Shown here piece by piece: positions 5,783 to 48,926 of a DNA stretch of 64,000 bases (its first letter is position 1; every line of letters begins with the position of its first letter). Under the pieces are notes generated by a model. The model searched no databases, was not told the DNA's origin, and saw only the letters and a program-made list of their open reading frames with translations. The stretch spans positions 4-64,003 of the forward strand of contig JANPMV010000001.1 of the NCBI GenBank assembly GCA_031427135.1, in the 5' to 3' direction. The position numbers and the translations under genes were made by a program. Origin of the DNA: Cyanobacteria bacterium VAR_87_metabat_62. GTDB lineage: Bacteria > Cyanobacteriota > Cyanobacteriia > Cyanobacteriales > Microcoleaceae.

Positions 5783-6268
5783 ATGAGTATCGTCACAAAG
5801 TCCATCGTCAATGCAGACGCTGAAGCTCGTTACCTGAGCCCAGGCGAACTTGACCGAATCAAAAGCTTCGTCACCTCTGGTGAACGTCGCGTCCGCATCG
5901 CCCAAATTTTGAGCGAATCCCGCGAACGTATCGTCAAGCAAGCCGGCGACCAACTTTTCCAAAAACGCCCTGACGTAGTTTCTCCCGGCGGCAACGCTTA
6001 CGGCGAAGAAATGACCGCAACTTGCTTGCGCGACATGGATTACTACCTGCGTTTGATCACCTACGGAATCGTAGCTGGCGACATTACCCCGATCGAAGAA
6101 ATCGGTATTGTCGGCGTCCGCGAAATGTACAAATCCTTGGGAACCCCGATTGAAGCAGTAGCCGAAGGAATTCGCGCTATGAAGAATGCAGCTTCTTCGT
6201 TGCTTTCTGGAGAAGATGCTTCCGAAGCTTCCTCTTACTTCGACTACGTTATCGGTGCGATGCAGTAA
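5783..6268 (+). CDS. apcA: allophycocyanin alpha subunit
   Basis: 161 aa, [30 protein letters not shown]... typical ApcA, followed by apcB and apcC. Confidence 0.97.
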
Positions 6269-6431
6269 AGATTTTAGATTTTAGATTTTAGATTGCAGAA
6301 TCGGGAGTTGCCGGCACTAAGCCCAAAGCTTTTGCAGATAACAAACCACAGATAAGTCTGAAATCCCAAATCCCAAATCCGAGCTACAAAATTGGACTGA
6401 ACTCAGCCACTTTCTAGGAAACAAGACTACC

Positions 6432-6917
6432 ATGCAAGACGCAATTACAGCCGTTATCAATTCCTCTGACGTTCAAGGTAAGTACCTGGACATCAGCGCT
6501 CTAGATAAGCTCAAGAACTACTTCGCATCTGGCGAACTGCGCGTCCGCGCCGCTACAGCCATCAGCGCCAACGCAGCCACAATCGTCAAAGAAGCAGTTG
6601 CTAAGTCTCTGTTGTACTCTGACGTAACTCGTCCCGGCGGCAATATGTACACAACTCGCCGTTATGCAGCTTGCATTCGCGACTTGGACTACTACCTCCG
6701 CTACGCCACCTACGCAATGCTAGCTGGCGACCCTTCCATCCTGGATGAGCGCGTGCTCAACGGTTTGAAAGAAACCTACAATTCCTTGGGCGTGCCCATC
6801 GGTTCTACCGTACAAGCCATCCAAGCAATGAAAGAAGTCACCGCCGGTTTGGTCGGTTCTGACGCTGGTAAAGAAATGGGCGTCTATTTCGACTACATCT
6901 GCTCTGGCTTGAGCTAA
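6432..6917 (+). CDS. apcB: allophycocyanin beta subunit
   Basis: 161 aa, [20 protein letters not shown]...[11 protein letters not shown] typical ApcB. Confidence 0.97.
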
Positions 6918-43685: not shown

Positions 43686-44636
43686 CTACGCTTGCTGTTG
43701 CATTTCCAGCAACTCAGGAATTGTCACAAACCGATATCCCTCTTTTTTCAAACCAGCAATCATCTCCGGTAAAGCTTTAATAGTCCGAGATCGATCGCCC
43801 CCGCCGTCGTGCATCAACACAATCGCACCCGGCTTCGCACCCTTCAACACATTCTCCACAAAGGCTTCCGGTTGAGCGCGCGGATCCGTATCGGCAGATG
43901 TTACAGACCACATCACAACTGAATAATTCTGCTCTTTAGCATACTTAGCTAAGCCATTATTCAATACTCCCCCCGGCGGGCGGAAAAAAGTTGTCTTAAC
44001 TCCCGTGGTTTCGTAAATAAGTCTTGCTGTGCGATCGATTTCATTAGCCGCCGTCGCCGCATCCATCACATCGTACGGGTGATGCCACGTATGATTGCCG
44101 ATCGCGTGACCTTCTGCCACAACTCGACGACCAATTTCAGGAGAACTTTCGAGAGATTTGCCTATCCAAAAAAATGTTGCTTTAACATCATTTTGCTTAA
44201 AAATATCCAGCATTTGTTCTGTAGTTTCCGGCCACGGCCCGTCATCAACTGTTAAAGCAATAACTTTCTGAGAATATTTGATTGTTCCTTCAAAAACAGT
44301 TGTTCCCTGAAACTGTTGCGGTGGCACAAAAGTCAAGCGTTTTTCCTTGGATTCCAACACGGTGAGCAGTTGTTCAACTGTGCGATCGAGATTAAACGCT
44401 GTTTTATTGTCTCCAACTTCCTTGACTGACGGATTTACCGCTAAAGATTGATTGAGGTTCTGCACCTGCACCGCTGCGGTTGCGGGGTTGTCGCTTCCCT
44501 GCTGGTTTCCTGGTAGCAGTATACCGATGATAAAACTAATCGCGGCTGCTGCAAGGGCGATCGCCGCAAAACGCCATTTTTTTCGCAGTCTTTGAAACAG
44601 ATGATTTCCGGTCACTTGAGATTCCTTTGACTCCAC
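43686..44636 (-). CDS. polysaccharide deacetylase (NodB homology domain), membrane-anchored
   Basis: TVDDGPWP and GNHTWHHP NodB motifs, N-terminal TM. Confidence 0.88.
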   Translation of the reverse strand: MESKESQVTGNHLFQRLRKKWRFAAIALAAAAISFIIGILLPGNQQGSDNPATAAVQVQNLNQSLAVNPSVKEVGDNKTAFNLDRTVEQLLTVLESKEKRLTFVPPQQFQGTTVFEGTIKYSQKVIALTVDDGPWPETTEQMLDIFKQNDVKATFFWIGKSLESSPEIGRRVVAEGHAIGNHTWHHPYDVMDAATAANEIDRTARLIYETTGVKTTFFRPPGGVLNNGLAKYAKEQNYSVVMWSVTSADTDPRAQPEAFVENVLKGAKPGAIVLMHDGGGDRSRTIKALPEMIAGLKKEGYRFVTIPELLEMQQQA

Positions 44637-44944
44637 ACTGCCGATAATGATATGGGAATTTCAGGCAAAAGAAACCTAATTTTTGATAAATATGTCTGGG
44701 CGGGGATTGACAGCGGGCTAAAAGCGGGCTACTGAATCTGGGCGGTGGATTGGTGGCGCGGCGGTGAGAATTCAGAGCGATCGGAGTGTAGTACAGTATT
44801 GCGATCGGATTTAGGTGCGGCGACACTACCAATTTTGCAGCTCAAAGTCTTTATTTGCAAGGATTTCTTGAGCTATAAGTCTTAGTTTTGGCGATCGACA
44901 CCCTATCTAAAAAACCCAATTTAAAAAAAAGTTGTATTACCCCC

Positions 44945-44974
44945 TTGACAGTCTTGTAATACGTAATGTAGTAT
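44945..44974 (+). promoter_or_regulatory. strong sigma70-like promoter candidate upstream of the tRNA array
   Basis: TTGACA (44945-44950), 18 nt, TAGTAT (44969-44974), A-tract upstream. Paralogous copy at 55535-55563. Confidence 0.55.
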
Positions 44975-45186
44975 AAATGCATGGCGAAAGAGAAAAGCTT
45001 CAAAGCGTTACTCCAAAAGCAATATGAACTTTGAAAACAGAATAGATAATTAATCGTGTCACATACTTTTGGACATTGGCGGTGTAGACTCCGGCAACAA
45101 TAGCCCGATCGGGTTGTAGTACGCGGAATCAACCGCCAGTAGTCCTAACTTGAGTCATTCAAGGACAGAATATTTTTGATTTTCGC

Positions 45187-45260
45187 GGGGGTATAGCTCA
45201 ACCGGTCAGAGCAGTCGCCTGTCGAGCGAAAGGTTGCGAGTTCAACTCTCGTTACTCCCG
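45187..45260 (+). tRNA. tRNA-Asp(GTC)
   Basis: Acceptor GGGGGTA/TACTCCC, loop CTGTCGA, T-arm GCGAG-TTCAACT-CTCGT, G73. Confidence 0.85.
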
Positions 45261-45264
45261 TCAA

Positions 45265-45340
45265 AGTCCCGTAGGCAAATTGGTTTAAGCCGTCACCCTC
45301 TCTGGCGTGAAAATTACGAGTTCAAACCTCGTCGGGACTC
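45265..45340 (+). tRNA. tRNA-like, irregular anticodon arm (CTC, Glu-like)
   Basis: Acceptor AGTCCCG/CGGGACT and a good T-arm. The anticodon arm has one extra nt (TCACC-CTCTCTG-G[C]GTGA). Confidence 0.5.
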
Positions 45341-45343
45341 CCA

Positions 45344-45417
45344 GGTTAGATGGCCGAGTGGTTTAAGGCGTCGCTCTGCAAAAGCGATTTTCGTGAGTTC
45401 AAATCTCACTCTAACCT
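45344..45417 (+). tRNA. tRNA-Cys(GCA)
   Basis: Acceptor GGTTAGA/TCTAACC, loop CTGCAAA, U73. Confidence 0.8.
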
Positions 45418-45475
45418 TTGTTCCTATTAATTAATAGGAGCAATCTCAAATCTGAAACTTCAAATCAGATTATAT

Positions 45476-45571
45476 AGCAGCGTAGCTTAATGGTAAAGCC
45501 CCAAGTTCATGCCTTGGCAATTGCGAGTACCGCTTCGCGGAAGCAAGCTACAAGTCCCGCCACTGCTACCA
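45476..45571 (+). tRNA. tRNA(CAT) Met-type with an about 21-nt insert in the T-loop; CCA encoded
   Basis: Anticodon arm CCAAG-TTCATGC-CTTGG. T-stem GCGAG/CCCGC encloses 28 nt. The 3' end reads ...CACTGCT-A-CCA. Confidence 0.5.
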
Positions 45572-45574
45572 AAT

Positions 45575-45649
45575 ACAGGGATGATGTAACTGGCAACATC
45601 TCAGTCTCCAAAACTGATTTTCTGAGTTCAAATCTCAGTCCCTGTGCCA
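45575..45649 (+). tRNA. tRNA-Trp(CCA); CCA encoded
   Basis: Acceptor ACAGGGA/TCCCTGT (A1-U72), loop CTCCAAA, G73. Confidence 0.8.
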
Positions 45650-45655
45650 ATTTAT

Positions 45656-45732
45656 AGTGCTGTAGGCAAATGGTTTAAGCCGCTTGGTTTTCACCCAAGT
45701 GATTGCGGGTTCAACTCCCGTCAGCACTTCCA
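45656..45732 (+). tRNA. tRNA-Glu(TTC); CCA encoded
   Basis: Acceptor AGTGCTG/CAGCACT, arm CTTGG-TTTTCAC-CCAAG. Confidence 0.8.
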
Positions 45733-45740
45733 AAACTTCT

Positions 45741-45822
45741 GGGTTGGCCCTCCTACTGGCGTGGGTAGCTGTCTGTAAAACAGTAGCTTAAAGCGTTGCT
45801 GGTTCAATTCCAGCCCGACCCA
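45741..45822 (+). tRNA. tRNA-Tyr(GTA), long variable arm, irregular D-arm
   Basis: Acceptor GGGTTGG/CCGACCC, loop CTGTAAA, A73. Confidence 0.6.
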
Positions 45823-45962
45823 TTTGTAACTGTATTATGACTTACACAAAAAACCCGGTTTCTGAGAAAAATCTTGTATCTCTACGAGAGATATTTAGAT
45901 AGAAACCGGGTTTTTGACCCCCGTGGGTAAATCCTGTGTATTTCATATGCAGTTGCAATTTT

Positions 45963-46037
45963 GAGAATGAGTTGTAACTGGACAACAATTCAGTTTGCGT
46001 GACTGAACATTCGGGGGTTCAAATCCCTCCGTTCTCG
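45963..46037 (+). tRNA. tRNA-like (GCG, Arg-like), atypical loop TTGCGTG
   Basis: Acceptor GAGAATG/CGTTCTC, 6-bp anticodon stem TTCAGT/ACTGAA. Confidence 0.55.
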
Positions 46038-46041
46038 CTAT

Positions 46042-46128
46042 GGAGAAGTGGCCGAGTGGCTTAAGGCGCTTTCCTGCTAAGAAAGAGCGGTTTAACAACC
46101 GTCGTGGGTTCAAATCCCACCTTCTCCG
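46042..46128 (+). tRNA. tRNA-Ser(GCT)
   Basis: Class II. Acceptor GGAGAAG/CTTCTCC, loop CTGCTAA, G73. Confidence 0.85.
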
Positions 46129-46132
46129 TTTT

Positions 46133-46205
46133 CCCCCGATAGCTCAGTTGGTAGAGCGCTTGTTTGAAGAACAAGAAGTCGTCAGTTCGATACTGACTTG
46201 GGGGA
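46133..46205 (+). tRNA. tRNA-Phe(GAA) with C1-G72
   Basis: Acceptor CCCCCGA/TTGGGGG, arm CTTGT-TTGAAGA-ACAAG, A73. Confidence 0.75.
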
Positions 46206-46211
46206 TTGCGT

Positions 46212-46287
46212 TGCCTCATAGCTCAATTGGTAGAGCTGCACGCTGTTAACGTGATGGTTGTAGGTTCGAGTCCTACTGAGGCAGCCA
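46212..46287 (+). tRNA. tRNA-Asn(GTT); CCA encoded
   Basis: Acceptor TGCCTCA/TGAGGCA (U1-A72), loop CTGTTAA, G73. Confidence 0.85.
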
Positions 46288-46298
46288 TTTTACAAATT

Positions 46299-46371
46299 GC
46301 CGGGTGGACAAATTGGTAAAGTCGGATGCCTCTGAAACAGGAGTTTATCAGGGTAAGAGCCTACCCCGGCA
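46299..46371 (+). tRNA. tRNA-like/pseudo-tRNA (GAA-type loop, no TTC T-loop)
   Basis: Acceptor GCCGGGT/ACCC(C)GGC, weak anticodon stem, T-arm reduced to AGG-GTAAGAG-CCT. Confidence 0.4.
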
Positions 46372-46380
46372 TTCAATTAT

Positions 46381-46454
46381 TGGGAAGTCGCCTAATTGGT
46401 ATGGCACCGCTCTTTGAAAGCGGACAAATGCAGGTTCAAGCCCTGCCTTCCCAG
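46381..46454 (+). tRNA. tRNA-Gln(TTG)
   Basis: Acceptor TGGGAAG/CTTCCCA (U1-A72), arm CCGCT-CTTTGAA-AGCGG, G73. Confidence 0.85.
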
Positions 46455-46483
46455 TTTTGCTATCACCAAAGCAGATTAATTAT

Positions 46484-46560
46484 ACTCCTGTAGCCCAATT
46501 GGTAGAGGCCGCAATTTCAAAAATTGTGTTGTGTGAGTTCAAATCTCACCAGGAGTACCA
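46484..46560 (+). tRNA. class-I-shaped tRNA with Leu anticodon CAA; CCA encoded
   Basis: Acceptor ACTCCTG/CAGGAGT, loop TTCAAAA, 5-nt variable region, A73. Confidence 0.65.
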
Positions 46561-46583
46561 AATTTTCAATTAAGTTTCTACTT

Positions 46584-46658
46584 GCTCTTGTGGCGGAATT
46601 GGCATACGCGGCAGATTTAAAATTTGTTTTATTGTGAGTTCGAGTCTCACCAAGAGTA
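46584..46658 (+). tRNA. class-I-shaped tRNA with Leu anticodon TAA
   Basis: Leu-type D-arm GTGGCGGAATTGGCATACGCG, loop TTTAAAA, short variable region, A73. Confidence 0.65.
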
Positions 46659-46662
46659 TGAA

Positions 46663-46736
46663 CGGGATGTGGCGCAACTTGGTAGCGCGGCGGCTTTGGG
46701 AGCCGAAGGTTGCAGGTTCAAATCCTGCCATCCCGA
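46663..46736 (+). tRNA. tRNA-Pro(TGG)
   Basis: Acceptor CGGGATG/CATCCCG (C1-G72), loop TTTGGGA, A73. Confidence 0.88.
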
Positions 46737-46740
46737 CTTT

Positions 46741-46814
46741 ACCTCTATGATGCAATTAGTAGACATCTCTTGTTGAGTGCGAGAGTTTTGTTGGTGCAAG
46801 TCCAACTAGGGGTA
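46741..46814 (+). tRNA. tRNA-like with Leu anticodon GAG, loop TTGAGTG, T-loop TGCAAGT
   Basis: Acceptor ACCTCTA/TAGGGGT, 6-bp anticodon stem, A73. Confidence 0.5.
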
Positions 46815-46848
46815 TTGGGTATCAAAGCCCAAAAGTGCGATCGATTTT

Positions 46849-46922
46849 ACCCTTGTAGCCCAATTGGTAGAGGCGCTAGACTTAGGATCTAGTTAGTGCT
46901 GGTTCAAGTCCAGTCAGGGGTA
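46849..46922 (+). tRNA. class-I-shaped tRNA with Leu anticodon TAG
   Basis: Acceptor ACCCTTG/CAGGGGT, arm CTAGA-CTTAGGA-TCTAG, A73. Confidence 0.65.
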
Positions 46923-46933
46923 TTTGGTGATAG

Positions 46934-47012
46934 CGCGGGTGACGTAGCCACGGTAGGATTGGAGGTCTCATAAGCCTCTTCATAGCAGGTTCAACTCCTG
47001 TCCCCGCCACCA
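46934..47012 (+). tRNA. tRNA(CAT) Met-type with imperfect acceptor/D-arm; CCA encoded
   Basis: Loop CTCATAA, T-arm GCAGG-TTCAACT-CCTGT, 3' end CCCCGCC-A-CCA, 5' CGCGGGT giving a C1:C72 mismatch. Confidence 0.5.
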
Positions 47013-47017
47013 AAAAT

Positions 47018-47089
47018 GCAGGTGTAATGTAACTGGCAACATGAGGCTCTTGTAAAGCTTTCTTGCGAGTTCAAATCTCGCCATCTGCT
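47018..47089 (+). tRNA. tRNA-Thr(TGT)
   Basis: Acceptor GCAGGTG/CATCTGC, loop CTTGTAA. D-arm is identical to the Trp gene at 45575. Confidence 0.8.
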
Positions 47090-47150
47090 TATAACTAAGC
47101 TAGAGGTGTTATTTTTGTTAATGTTTTGCTAACGAATCAGAGAAAAAATC

Positions 47151-47990
47151 ATGAGACGGATTGCGATCGCTCAAGATACACTAAAGATCATTGAAGCAGG
47201 CTACTACTGCTCTCCAGAAGGTAAACGCATTGAACTTGTTCAAAAAATAGCATCCTGTCTTGAACAGACCAAATCCTATGAACCCGATGCTCTTTCTAAG
47301 CTCAAACAAGTTGTTCTTTCTGCTACTTCATCATTCTCAAATATTGAATTTGAAGTTAGGAATGAGACGACTTTGATGGGAGCAGAACGTATGGCAACAG
47401 GACAACAGTTTCAAAAGATTGGAGTCCTTAATTTTGCTTCCGCTAAAAATCCTGGTGGTGGATTTCTCAAAGGCGCACAAGCTCAAGAAGAGAGTTTAGC
47501 ACGCAGTTCTGCTCTTTACAAAAGTATTTTAAAATGTCGTGGTCATTATGAATTTCATCGCTCTTATAATTCGCTCCTGTATTCCGATCGGATGATCTAT
47601 TCACCTGATTGTCCTGTTTTCCGAAAAGATGATGGAACGCTATTAGAAACACCTTATCTTGTTGATTTCATCACAAGTCCGGCTCCTAATGCTGGCGAAG
47701 TTTGGAGAAAACAATCCCAGGATGCTGAAAAAATACGCGAAGTTCTATATGAACGCGGTGCAAAATTGTTGAGCCTAGCTATTTCTAATGGCTGTGATGC
47801 TCTAGTTTTAGGAGCTTGGGGATGTGGTGTATTTAGAAATAAACCATCAATGGTTGCTCAAGTGTTTGCAGATTTATTATTCCCTAATAGTCAATTTTCG
47901 GGAAGAATAAAAAACATCTTATTTTCTGTACTTGACTCTTCTGAACAAGCAAAAGTATTTGCGGAATTTTATACTAGATTTATTTTGTAG
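47151..47990 (+). CDS. bacterial-type poly(ADP-ribose) glycohydrolase-like macrodomain protein (DUF2263/TIGR02452-like)
   Basis: 279 aa. NFASAKNPGGGFLKGAQAQEESL contains the PARG signature GGG-X7-QEE. Embedded in the tRNA array. Confidence 0.8.
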   Translation: MRRIAIAQDTLKIIEAGYYCSPEGKRIELVQKIASCLEQTKSYEPDALSKLKQVVLSATSSFSNIEFEVRNETTLMGAERMATGQQFQKIGVLNFASAKNPGGGFLKGAQAQEESLARSSALYKSILKCRGHYEFHRSYNSLLYSDRMIYSPDCPVFRKDDGTLLETPYLVDFITSPAPNAGEVWRKQSQDAEKIREVLYERGAKLLSLAISNGCDALVLGAWGCGVFRNKPSMVAQVFADLLFPNSQFSGRIKNILFSVLDSSEQAKVFAEFYTRFIL

Positions 47991-48040
47991 CGACTTCATG
48001 TTGAGATTGAAAACATGAAATTGCTAACACCAGTTGAAAT

Positions 48041-48111
48041 GCGGATATGGTGCAACGGTAGCATCTGAGTCTTCCAAACTCGCGATACGGGTTCGAGTCC
48101 CGTTATCCGCT
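48041..48111 (+). tRNA. tRNA-Gly(TCC)
   Basis: Acceptor GCGGATA/TATCCGC, loop CTTCCAA, U73. Confidence 0.85.
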
Positions 48112-48122
48112 TGGCTAAAGAT

Positions 48123-48195
48123 GGGAGTGTAGCTCAATGGATAGAGCGCCGCGCTTCGGACGCGGATGTTGTGGGTTCGACTCCTACCACTCTCG
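48123..48195 (+). tRNA. tRNA-Arg(TCG)
   Basis: Acceptor GGGAGTG/CACTCTC, arm CCGCG-CTTCGGA-CGCGG. Confidence 0.85.
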
Positions 48196-48296
48196 TTGTT
48201 TTTGCTTGAATTTAAGGAGGTTGATTCCATTGAATGATTGATTTTTTATAGTAACCCCGATCGCCCTTTTGCGTGTCCCAATCTTTGGATCCTACA

Positions 48297-48320
48297 TACT
48301 TTAGTACGAGAGGAAAGGTA
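48297..48320 (+). ncRNA. hairpin carrying an exact copy of the 23S rRNA sarcin-ricin loop dodecamer
   Basis: ACTTT-AGTACGAGAGGA-AAGGT. The loop at 48303-48314 equals the universally conserved AGUACGAGAGGA. Confidence 0.6.
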
Positions 48321-48508
48321 ACGCTGTCAAAAAAACGGCGCGCGTTTGTAAACGAGGAGTGCATTGAACCCGATAGGTAGGCTTAAAAGTAGCCATCCTT
48401 TAAAGAGTGTGTAGCAACTCATCGGCGGAGTCCCTCTAGTAACTCAGAAAACGCAATGCTCTGATAACTTATACGCAAAGTGCGATCGTGCAAAGCAACC
48501 AACAATAC

Positions 48509-48582
48509 GGGAGTGTAACTCAACTGGACAGAGTGTCGAGCTTCTACCTCGAAAGTTGTGGGTTCGGGTCCTACCACTCCTG
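48509..48582 (+). tRNA. tRNA-Arg(TCT)
   Basis: Acceptor GGGAGTG/CACTCCT, arm TCGAG-CTTCTAC-CTCGA. Confidence 0.8.
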
Positions 48583-48588
48583 TTAAAT

Positions 48589-48665
48589 GGGTTCGTAGCT
48601 TAATTGGAAAAGCATCTAACAGGCTGTTAGAAAGATATCGGTTCAAATCCGATCGCAATCCACCA
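48589..48665 (+). tRNA. tRNA-Ala-like (GGC), loop CAGGCTG; CCA encoded
   Basis: G1-C72, G2-C71, G3:U70, A73, with an extra C in the 3' acceptor strand. Confidence 0.55.
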
Positions 48666-48670
48666 AATTT

Positions 48671-48747
48671 GGGTCTGTAGCTTAATTGGAAAAGCACCTA
48701 GTTCGCTGCTAGGAAAATGTCGGTTCGAGTCCGATCGCGATCCACCA
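48671..48747 (+). tRNA. tRNA-Ala-like (CGC), loop TTCGCTG; CCA encoded
   Basis: Paralogue of 48589, with G3:U70, A73 and the same bulged C. Confidence 0.55.
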
Positions 48748-48752
48748 AAAAC

Positions 48753-48825
48753 GGGGTCATAGCTCAATTGGTAGAGCGCTTGCCTTGCACGCAAGAGGTT
48801 AGGAGTTCAATTCTCCTTGATTCCA
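48753..48825 (+). tRNA. tRNA-Ala(TGC)
   Basis: Acceptor GGGGTCA/TGATTCC with G3:U70, loop CTTGCAC, A73. Confidence 0.88.
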
Positions 48826-48926
48826 TGCGGTGTCTGAAGTCGAAGCAGTAGTAGCACTCGTTATTTCAACTAGCGACGTACTCATTATCGTACTATATTG
48901 TTTAGTAAAGACTGAAAACACTACTA

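Follow-up and report, generated by a model that had tools for sequence, protein, structure and literature searches.

The DNA analysed here, called the window, is a stretch of 64,000 nucleotides (nt) from contig JANPMV010000001.1 of Cyanobacteria bacterium VAR_87_metabat_62, a member of the Microcoleaceae. It contains a gene coding for a bacterial-type poly(ADP-ribose) glycohydrolase (PARG) inside a long array of tRNA genes of the type known as L-array or trn operon. The original prediction, made from the letters alone, had described a 279-residue open reading frame (ORF) between tRNA-Thr and tRNA-Gly, on the same strand and with spacers of about 50-60 nt. ARAGORN and Rfam put these spacers at 61 nt on the side of tRNA-Thr and 50 nt on the side of tRNA-Gly, with all the genes on one strand (Table 1). 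ARAGORN finds 27 tRNA genes in the window, all on the forward strand between 45186 and 56487, 16 of them upstream of PARG and 11 downstream. Of these, 21 lie in 45186-48825. The Rfam gathering score is reached by 23 tRNAs, two of which have no ARAGORN call.

Table 1. Features of the tRNA array and of its PARG gene, with positions in the window.
Feature	Position	Strand	Description
tRNA-operon promoter region	44932..44974	+	TTGACA (44945), 18 nt, TAGTAT (44969-44974); TrcR-type boxes
Upstream block of 16 tRNA genes (Asp-GUC ... Thr-UGU), L-array	45186..47089	+	ARAGORN, Rfam
tRNA-Thr(UGU), 5' neighbour of PARG	47018..47089	+	ARAGORN; Rfam 56 bits
61-nt spacer, presumed 5' untranslated region of PARG	47090..47150	+	unstructured; weak purine-rich stretch ahead of ATG
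PARG gene (bacterial-type poly(ADP-ribose) glycohydrolase)	47151..47990	+	279 aa, ATG start; PF10021 / TIGR02452
Stem-loop from PARG stop codon	47988..48026	+	14 bp, one bulge, no U tract
tRNA-Gly(UCC), 3' neighbour of PARG	48041..48111	+	ARAGORN; Rfam 63 bits
Array continuation: Arg-UCG, Arg-UCU, Ala-GGC, Rfam-only tRNA-like element, Ala-UGC	48122..48825	+	ARAGORN, Rfam
HNH homing-endonuclease-like gene, within array	48927..49760	+	Pfam HNH E 5.6e-4; PADLOC HEase 8.5e-14
RibD_C/DHFR-like gene in array region	50410-50982		
EF-Tu paralogue remnant, C-terminal 54 aa	51439..51600	+	tblastn, directly 3' of tRNA-Ser(GGA)
GNAT acetyltransferase gene, distal end of array region	54429..55391	+	Pfam E 4.6e-12

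The protein matches two family profiles nearly or fully end to end: PF10021, the catalytic domain of microbial-type PARGs, which used to be called DUF2263 (169.3 bits where 23.5 is the cut-off, E = 8.8e-50, positions 1-146 of the 146 in the profile), and TIGR02452 of NCBIfam (E = 4e-103, 344.6 bits for a cut-off of 50, positions 1-264 of 266). A sequence search of the PDB retrieves the PARG of Thermomonospora curvata (3SIG, E = 1e-66, 45% identity over ORF residues 3-277) and the one of Deinococcus radiodurans (5ZDA, E = 3e-50, about 40% identity). The ORF carries NPGGGFLKGAQAQEE, i.e., GGG at residues 102-104, seven residues (FLKGAQA), and QEE at residues 112-114, so that the signature predicted as GGG-X6-8-QEE is indeed present, as GGG-X7-QEE. 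Its catalytic glutamate is E114, which aligns with the residue mutated in the E115A structure of the T. curvata enzyme (3SIJ). The diphosphate loop GAWGCGVF (G221-F228) is identical to the T. curvata loop, and the catalytic and diphosphate-loop residues are invariant in an alignment of 27 cyanobacterial homologues. The AlphaFold model (mean predicted local distance difference test, pLDDT, 81.7; predicted template modelling score, pTM, 0.85) has a macrodomain fold with the PARG-specific N-terminal extension. Its top Foldseek match is 3SIH (template modelling score, TM, 0.90), with 5ZDC at TM 0.79 and generic macrodomains at 0.36-0.46 only.

Membership of the PARG/macrodomain clan and association with tRNA arrays had been set beforehand as the tests that could refute the original prediction. 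With respect to the first, profile, sequence, and fold searches all place the protein in this clan, in agreement with its earlier assignment to the DUF2263 type of bacterial PARGs. Judged by its sequence, the ORF is a canonical, full-length bacterial-type PARG with an intact active site, and the protein is a macrodomain ADP-ribosyl hydrolase predicted to be active. It shares fold, length, and the GGG-X7-QEE and GAWGCGVF loops with the characterised PARGs of T. curvata (3SIG), D. radiodurans (DRB0099, 5ZDA), and Streptomyces coelicolor (SCO0909). The difference lies in the context, as those genes are found in protein-coding operons whereas the one of the window lies between two tRNA genes. The biochemistry of the family comes from non-cyanobacterial PARGs. 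The nearest homologues of the window PARG are from Microcoleus, and its dN/dS relative to orthologues is 0.13-0.35, which indicates purifying selection. PADLOC gives no match for it.

The borders of the gene are also partly conserved. The 61-nt spacer keeps its length and sequence in the Microcoleus loci (83% mean column identity). At the other end, the stem-loop that starts from the stop codon has a ΔG of -14.7 kcal/mol (z = -4.9), and none of 200 shuffled sequences folds equally well. This hairpin is kept in one related locus (L005), with one compensatory change from C-G to U-A, and is lost in another (L001). It is probably a 3'-end stabiliser of the processed PARG mRNA and not a terminator.

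Distribution of PARG in tRNA arrays

Loci with PARG homologues (hereafter given L-numbers) were collected by scanning genomes and metagenomes and by looking up eight exact proteins, and all were scanned for tRNAs. In the related set, which has 28 loci, PARG shares at least 57% identity with the one of the window; the distant set has 77 homologues, which are at most 54% identical to it. PARG lies within a same-strand tRNA array in 21 of the 28 related loci, and a tRNA array is found near none of the 77 distant homologues (Fisher p = 8e-13, or p = 1e-7 when loci are collapsed to lineages). Hence, the enrichment near tRNA arrays considered in the original prediction is a feature of the cyanobacterial clade only, and the distant set rules it out as a trait of the family at large. 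The original prediction thus stands after both tests.

The array-embedded loci come from Microcoleus (8), Coleofasciculaceae and Coleofasciculus, Calothrix and Dulcicalothrix (3), Nostoc, Phormidium ambiguum, Baaleninema, Scytonematopsis, Cyanosarcina, and three metagenome contigs. The position of the gene is largely fixed: tRNA-Thr(UGU) is immediately 5' of PARG in 16 of the 21 loci, and tRNA-Gly(UCC) is the first tRNA 3' of it, again in 16. This slot is kept across cyanobacterial orders, at PARG identities of 57-92%. The order Asp-Glu/Cys-...-Leu-Pro-Leu-Thr-Gly-Arg-Ala-His-Ser-Lys is common to the window array and the loci of Microcoleus, Calothrix, Nostoc, Phormidium, and Cyanosarcina, and the order of the tRNAs upstream of PARG is conserved between the window and arrays L001-L010, L019, L022, and L183-L188. 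The other 7 related loci (5 non-redundant) have a stand-alone PARG. In a neighbour-joining tree, built without bootstraps, the cyanobacterial PARGs form one clade, and array-embedded members are found at the base of this clade as well as in its crown. By blastn, the window array matches arrays on plasmids of Nostoc (including PCC 7120), Calothrix, and Tolypothrix; no PARG homologue was found on any cyanobacterial plasmid in PLSDB. PARG is an integral and selected component of the cyanobacterial L-array (trn operon).

The surroundings of the window array recur in the Microcoleus locus L183 (JAUBTM010000008.1), with OmpA/BON, BirA-like, deacetylase, the array, RibD_C, GNAT, ThiF, and DUF924. Because these housekeeping neighbours are common to both, the window array appears to be chromosomal. 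The PARG of L183 is only 69% identical to the one of the window despite the matching neighbourhood, which suggests that the array was replaced by recombination rather than inherited by simple vertical descent.

Promoter, TrcR regulation, and companion genes

The original prediction had seen no promoter for PARG. A consensus scan likewise finds no sigma-70-like promoter on the forward strand within 46486-50345, with the qualification that a TrcR-type promoter lies 2.2 kb upstream and explains the missing one at PARG. This site (TTGACA-18-TAGTAT, 44945-44974), located 5' of the first tRNA, is the only strong promoter-like one in the scan. From the start of the array to PARG, no terminator-like site was found by scanning other than the intra-tRNA stems. 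A TrcR-type box, TGTAGTAT (44967-44974), overlaps the -10 hexamer TAGTAT, and further related boxes occur at the same promoter (TTGTATTAC at 44932 and TTGTAATAC at 44953). Among the 17 loci in which the start of the array is present, 16 have TGTAGTAT 100-650 nt 5' of the first tRNA-Asp, and in related loci it is often found as tandem copies 11 nt apart.

In Anabaena sp. PCC 7120, TGTAGTAT lies over the -10 hexamer TAGTAT of the trn promoter and has been footprinted (PMC10272220). The box of the window promoter is identical to it. TrcR represses the Anabaena trn operon, and translational stress induces it (PMC8421152, PMC10272220). This operon resembles the window array in being a long same-strand array that starts from tRNA-Asp(GUC), with the same promoter box and with HNH and GNAT companions. 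By analogy, the window array would be repressed in standard conditions and induced by stress. The literature on the TrcR regulon also indicates that alr1372, a TIGR02452 gene of Anabaena, is 12.9-fold up in the trcR deletion mutant. Its promoter was among the candidates in a TrcR electrophoretic mobility shift assay, in which every one but all5040 shifted. The strongest TrcR targets in Anabaena include GNAT genes, and rtcB also belongs to the regulon. Stand-alone PARGs have a loose TrcR-like motif, ATAnTACA, at -68 to -80 in 3 of the 5 independent loci, the background rate being 0.09 per 200 nt; as this motif was chosen post hoc, TrcR-type boxes 5' of stand-alone PARGs are only suggestive.

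A pair of genes coding for HNH and Alr0857 (PF28246) proteins lies just 5' of four arrays (L019:3180-4122, L022:4330-5286, L184:5251-6166, and L188:4763-5680) and matches the TrcR-regulated asr0855(trcR)-alr0856-alr0857 cluster of Anabaena. In L184 and L188 the pair is preceded by a small ORF, which may be the repressor, its identification as TrcR by Pfam having failed.

Other protein genes accompany the arrays. Orthologues of the GNAT gene of the window are conserved companions (L001, L003, L004, L009, L010, L019, and L183). Intact EF-Tu paralogues occur in eight arrays (L003, L004, L008, L009, L010, L019, L022, and L188), at the place where the window has a remnant that is 80% identical to residues 356-409 of the EF-Tu of array L003 (tblastn). 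In arrays L009, L010, L019, and L188, PARG is followed by a gene for an RNA ligase of the PF09414 family; the D. radiodurans operon has a member of this ligase family 5' of PARG, and the window's own array has none. Microcoleus arrays carry an RNase T-like exonuclease gene. PMC8421152 already describes HNH genes linked to L-arrays, and RtcB as an array companion. The HNH gene of the window shares its C-terminal module with array ORFs of L010, L019, and L023.

Genes for processing ADP-ribose (ADPr) gather at the arrays in four kinds: PARG, NADAR, MacroD-like, and a fusion of cREC (cyclic-phosphate processing) with an ADP-ribosylglycohydrolase (ARH). NADAR genes (PF08719, E about 1e-42) lie between the tRNAs of four PARG-bearing arrays (L022:11978-12433, L027:3642-4079, L023:4385-4834, and L185:11276-11719). 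In 12 metagenome loci of non-cyanobacterial origin (L034, L036, L039, L043, L047, L051, L055, L064, L066, L089, L090, and L099), PARG also has a NADAR homologue in its locus, mostly no more than 2 kb away, which suggests that PARG and NADAR are a widespread pair of erasers. The MacroD-like gene is found inside the Coleofasciculus array, on the opposite strand (L185:3631-4236), and the cREC-ARH fusion (L187:3915-5834) lies 4 kb from the Baaleninema PARG array.

These data bear on the possibility that PARG is a mere passenger of a mobile tRNA array, perhaps one moved with homing endonucleases, and uses its stress promoter without any link to tRNAs or translation, with a role for example in DNA repair or as a general anti-toxin. 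One would not readily reconcile this with the same intergenic slot across cyanobacterial orders and the purifying selection on the gene, with the Anabaena homologue that lies outside an array and is still in the TrcR regulon, or with the accumulation of four kinds of ADPr-processing genes. It agrees, on the other hand, with the horizontal spread of L-arrays and the homing endonucleases that they carry (PMC8421152), with the many arrays that have no PARG, and with the Dps genes that accompany some L-arrays. The induction of the D. radiodurans PARG operon by DNA damage and the GC of the PARG region in the window (0.39, lower than its flanks) point in the same direction. On balance, a passenger gene seems quite improbable.

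Substrate and role of the array PARG

Among the macrodomain, ARH, and NADAR hydrolases tested on RNA ADP-ribosylated at 2'-OH by RhsP2, only PARG-type enzymes reversed the modification, including the bacterial-type SCO0909 of S. coelicolor and DRB0099 of D. radiodurans (PMC11833690). SCO0909 and DRB0099 also clear ADPr from 5'-phosphate RNA ends, and E. coli was protected from the RhsP2 toxin by these PARGs; in the same work NADAR is the hydrolase for guanosine-ADPr on RNA (PMC11833690). By analogy with SCO0909 and DRB0099, the window PARG is expected to hydrolyse ribose-ribose (2'-O) ADP-ribosyl bonds. The original prediction had proposed the reversal of ADP-ribosylation of RNA or of a translation factor. 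The activity of the family on RNA and the presence of NADAR in the same arrays favour the former, and we infer from them that the substrate is RNA.

The reading that we favour, with moderate confidence, is that PARG is a stress-induced repair enzyme for ADP-ribosylated RNA that is co-transcribed with spare tRNAs. The gene, lacking a promoter of its own, would be transcribed from the TrcR-repressed promoter 2.2 kb upstream within one long tRNA precursor, and the cell would hence make the enzyme only once translational stress has lifted the repression of the operon. The 3' processing that follows tRNA-Thr would give the PARG mRNA its 5' end, and RNase P cleavage at the 5' end of tRNA-Gly would set its 3' end, releasing an mRNA of about 950 nt capped or stabilised by the hairpin at this end. 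The enzyme would then strip 2'-O-ribose-linked ADPr from structured RNA (e.g., tRNA) and/or remove ADPr caps from 5'-phosphate ends. The same operon would provide replacement tRNAs and, in sister arrays, a copy of EF-Tu, an RNA ligase, and a NADAR hydrolase, so that the products of an array would together constitute a kit for replacing and repairing the translation apparatus. For this organism, co-transcription and processing are suggested by the anatomy of the operon and by the example of Anabaena.

A protein gene in a tRNA operon is known from E. coli, where the housekeeping operon thrU-tyrU-glyT-thrT-tufB has four tRNAs and ends with the protein gene, which is released by tRNA processing. 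The window array is similar in having a protein gene on the transcript of a tRNA operon, and sister arrays even carry EF-Tu. It differs in having the hydrolase gene in mid-array, more than 20 tRNAs, and a predicted control by repression and stress induction. DarT-DarG and other pairs of an ADP-ribosyltransferase (ART) toxin with a macrodomain or NADAR antitoxin likewise include a hydrolase that undoes toxic ADP-ribosylation of nucleic acids. Unlike these, the window PARG is adjoined by tRNAs and not by a transferase gene, and it is not a DarG-type macrodomain. A toxin-antitoxin-like or PARP-linked function was rejected, as no transferase lies beside PARG or among those larger ORFs within about 10 kb that the scan covered. 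No member of the ART, PARP, DarT, or KptA families was found among the larger ORFs scanned in 38.9-63.7 kb of the window, and no PARP homologue occurs in the scanned neighbourhood or among the tabulated genes of L019, L020, and L183-L188.

Several points weigh against a role in the repair of ADP-ribosylated RNA. The catalytic loop is poorly modelled (pLDDT <50 for residues 97-113), and the ribosome-binding site of PARG is weak. At least 16 cyanobacterial plasmids with related tRNA blocks carry no PARG, so the tRNAs of the array do not require it. The trn array of Anabaena, which is the model for co-transcription, is among the arrays without PARG; it is plasmid-borne, with alr1372 elsewhere in the genome but co-regulated, whereas the apparently chromosomal array of the window has PARG inside. 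In addition, alr1372 is linked to the array PARGs by the TIGR02452 family, and its membership of their clade is putative. No RNA-targeting ART was found near PARG, nor is one known to act in cyanobacteria. Finally, PARGs also hydrolyse poly(ADP-ribose) and some protein-linked ADPr, which, together with the DNA-damage-responsive operon of D. radiodurans, makes protein or DNA targets possible.

Among such targets, PARG might remove mono- or poly-ADPr that a toxin, a phage, or a transferase of the cell itself has put on a translation factor or a ribosomal protein (e.g., EF-Tu). This would fit the classical substrate of PARGs, protein-bound poly(ADP-ribose), their activity on Glu/Asp- and Tyr-linked mono-ADPr, as announced in the titles of the relevant papers, and the EF-Tu paralogues of eight arrays with the remnant in the window. 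However, a spare EF-Tu gene suggests the replacement of the factor and not its repair, and no PARP or other ART was seen when the larger ORFs up to about 10 kb away were scanned. Also, the co-embedded NADAR is reported only as a hydrolase of ADPr on nucleic acids (guanosine; PMC11833690), and the other companions are RNA enzymes, namely the ligase, the RNase T-like exonuclease, and, according to PMC8421152, RtcB. A protein target is considered improbable.

The RNA ligases raise another alternative. PARG, with NADAR, could serve as clean-up in an NAD-dependent repair of tRNAs rather than in the reversal of toxin damage. Its substrates would be the ADPr-1''-phosphate or ADPr>p left by Tpt1/KptA after ligation, or 5'-phosphate ADPr caps made by KptA, and its partners would be RNA ligases (PF09414, RtcB). 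Ligase genes do adjoin PARG in the arrays of Calothrix and Scytonematopsis and in D. radiodurans, rtcB is within the TrcR regulon, and the cREC-ARH fusion lies close to the PARG array of L187. Comparative genomics has also predicted a role in RNA repair for Macro and NADAR domains, with KptA products as their substrates (PMC9503650), and bacterial PARGs remove KptA-made 5'-phosphate ADPr (PMC11833690). Nevertheless, neither a KptA/Tpt1 nor a 2H gene was found in the window, the array of the window has no ligase, and hydrolysis of ADPr-1''-phosphate by PARG-type macrodomains was not found in the literature covered. This alternative is rather unlikely.

The favoured role in the repair of ADP-ribosylated RNA can be extended into a more tentative proposal. 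The cyanobacterial PARG clade might consist of dedicated tRNA/rRNA de-ADP-ribosylases in a TrcR-controlled "translation rescue island", which in some lineages would also include NADAR, MacroD-like, and cREC-ARH proteins. The trigger could be RNA-ART toxins of competing organisms or of phages, or other insults to translation, and a single transcript would then provide new tRNAs together with a reserve EF-Tu, an RNA ligase, and ADPr erasers for the damaged RNA. If this were true, bacterial-type PARGs, whose physiological roles are stated to be unknown by Lu et al. 2025 (PMC11833690), would gain their first such role and a natural context, and RNA ADP-ribosylation would be a common threat or signal in cyanobacteria.

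The enzyme family, the array type, its regulator, and the embedding of protein genes were already known; the conserved tRNA-operon context of PARG has apparently not been discussed so far. In the literature searched, there is nothing on PARG at a fixed slot inside L-arrays or on its co-embedding with NADAR, and terms for tRNA arrays are never combined with PARG or ADP-ribosylation. The text of PMC11833690 mentions neither cyanobacteria nor tRNA arrays. The trn-operon papers PMC8421152 and PMC10272220 have no wording on PARG or ADP-ribosylation in the parts covered, which do not include Fig. 6B of PMC8421152 (array-linked genes) and the supplements, where the gene may be listed. That most sampled cyanobacterial PARGs sit at a conserved slot of a presumably stress-induced tRNA operon provides a concrete and testable setting for them, the repair of the translation apparatus, and joins two separate literatures, the one on the trn operon and TrcR regulon and the one on the reversal of RNA ADP-ribosylation. 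Anabaena, with alr1372 and the trcR deletion mutant, is a tractable model at hand. L-arrays look like multi-component rescue modules, more than plain tRNA reservoirs.

Other features of the window and of PARG loci

Two Rfam-only tRNA-like elements of the array (45476-45568 and 48671-48743, 39 bits each) have no ARAGORN call. The first is 93 nt long and occupies the position of tRNA-Met in sister arrays. The tRNA at 45265-45343 has an 8-nt anticodon loop (ARAGORN anticodon "ctct") and is under the Rfam gathering score. Its slot is taken by a normal tRNA-Glu(CUC) in L003, L004, and L007 and by 8-nt-loop variants in L001 and L006. The tRNA of the window is perhaps akin to frameshift suppressors, or else a copy in decay.

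PARG homologues with 30-43% identity are found in jumbo phages, at times near phage tRNA clusters; full-length ones have 38-43% identity. For example, in a 395-kb phage contig (L102:9986-10819) PARG starts 30 nt after tRNA-Lys, and in Bacillus phage G (L181, gp114, 5977-6807) it lies 5.5 kb 3' of the tRNAs, near an Appr-1-p macrodomain gene. A phage link is unproven, as there is no control for the density of tRNAs in phages and the proximity of PARG to tRNAs in itself proves nothing.

Two conserved ORFs that match no family lie 3' of the last tRNA-Lys. ORF 57162-58646 (494 aa) has no match in Pfam, PADLOC, or PDB sequence searches; it shows by eye a vWA-like DKSGSM motif and had been considered as a Ro/TROVE-like RNA quality-control protein. 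ORF 56461-57021 (186 aa) has an orthologue in L003. It was rejected as a candidate Tpt1/KptA writer, with a Pfam E of 0.066 (below the cut-off) and all the catalytic motifs missing. The membrane ORF at 51902-53170 has a low GC (0.32) and looks like an insertion that came with the loss of EF-Tu. On the other side of the array, a divergent polysaccharide deacetylase gene adjoins the promoter and is conserved, the copy of the window being at 43686-44636.

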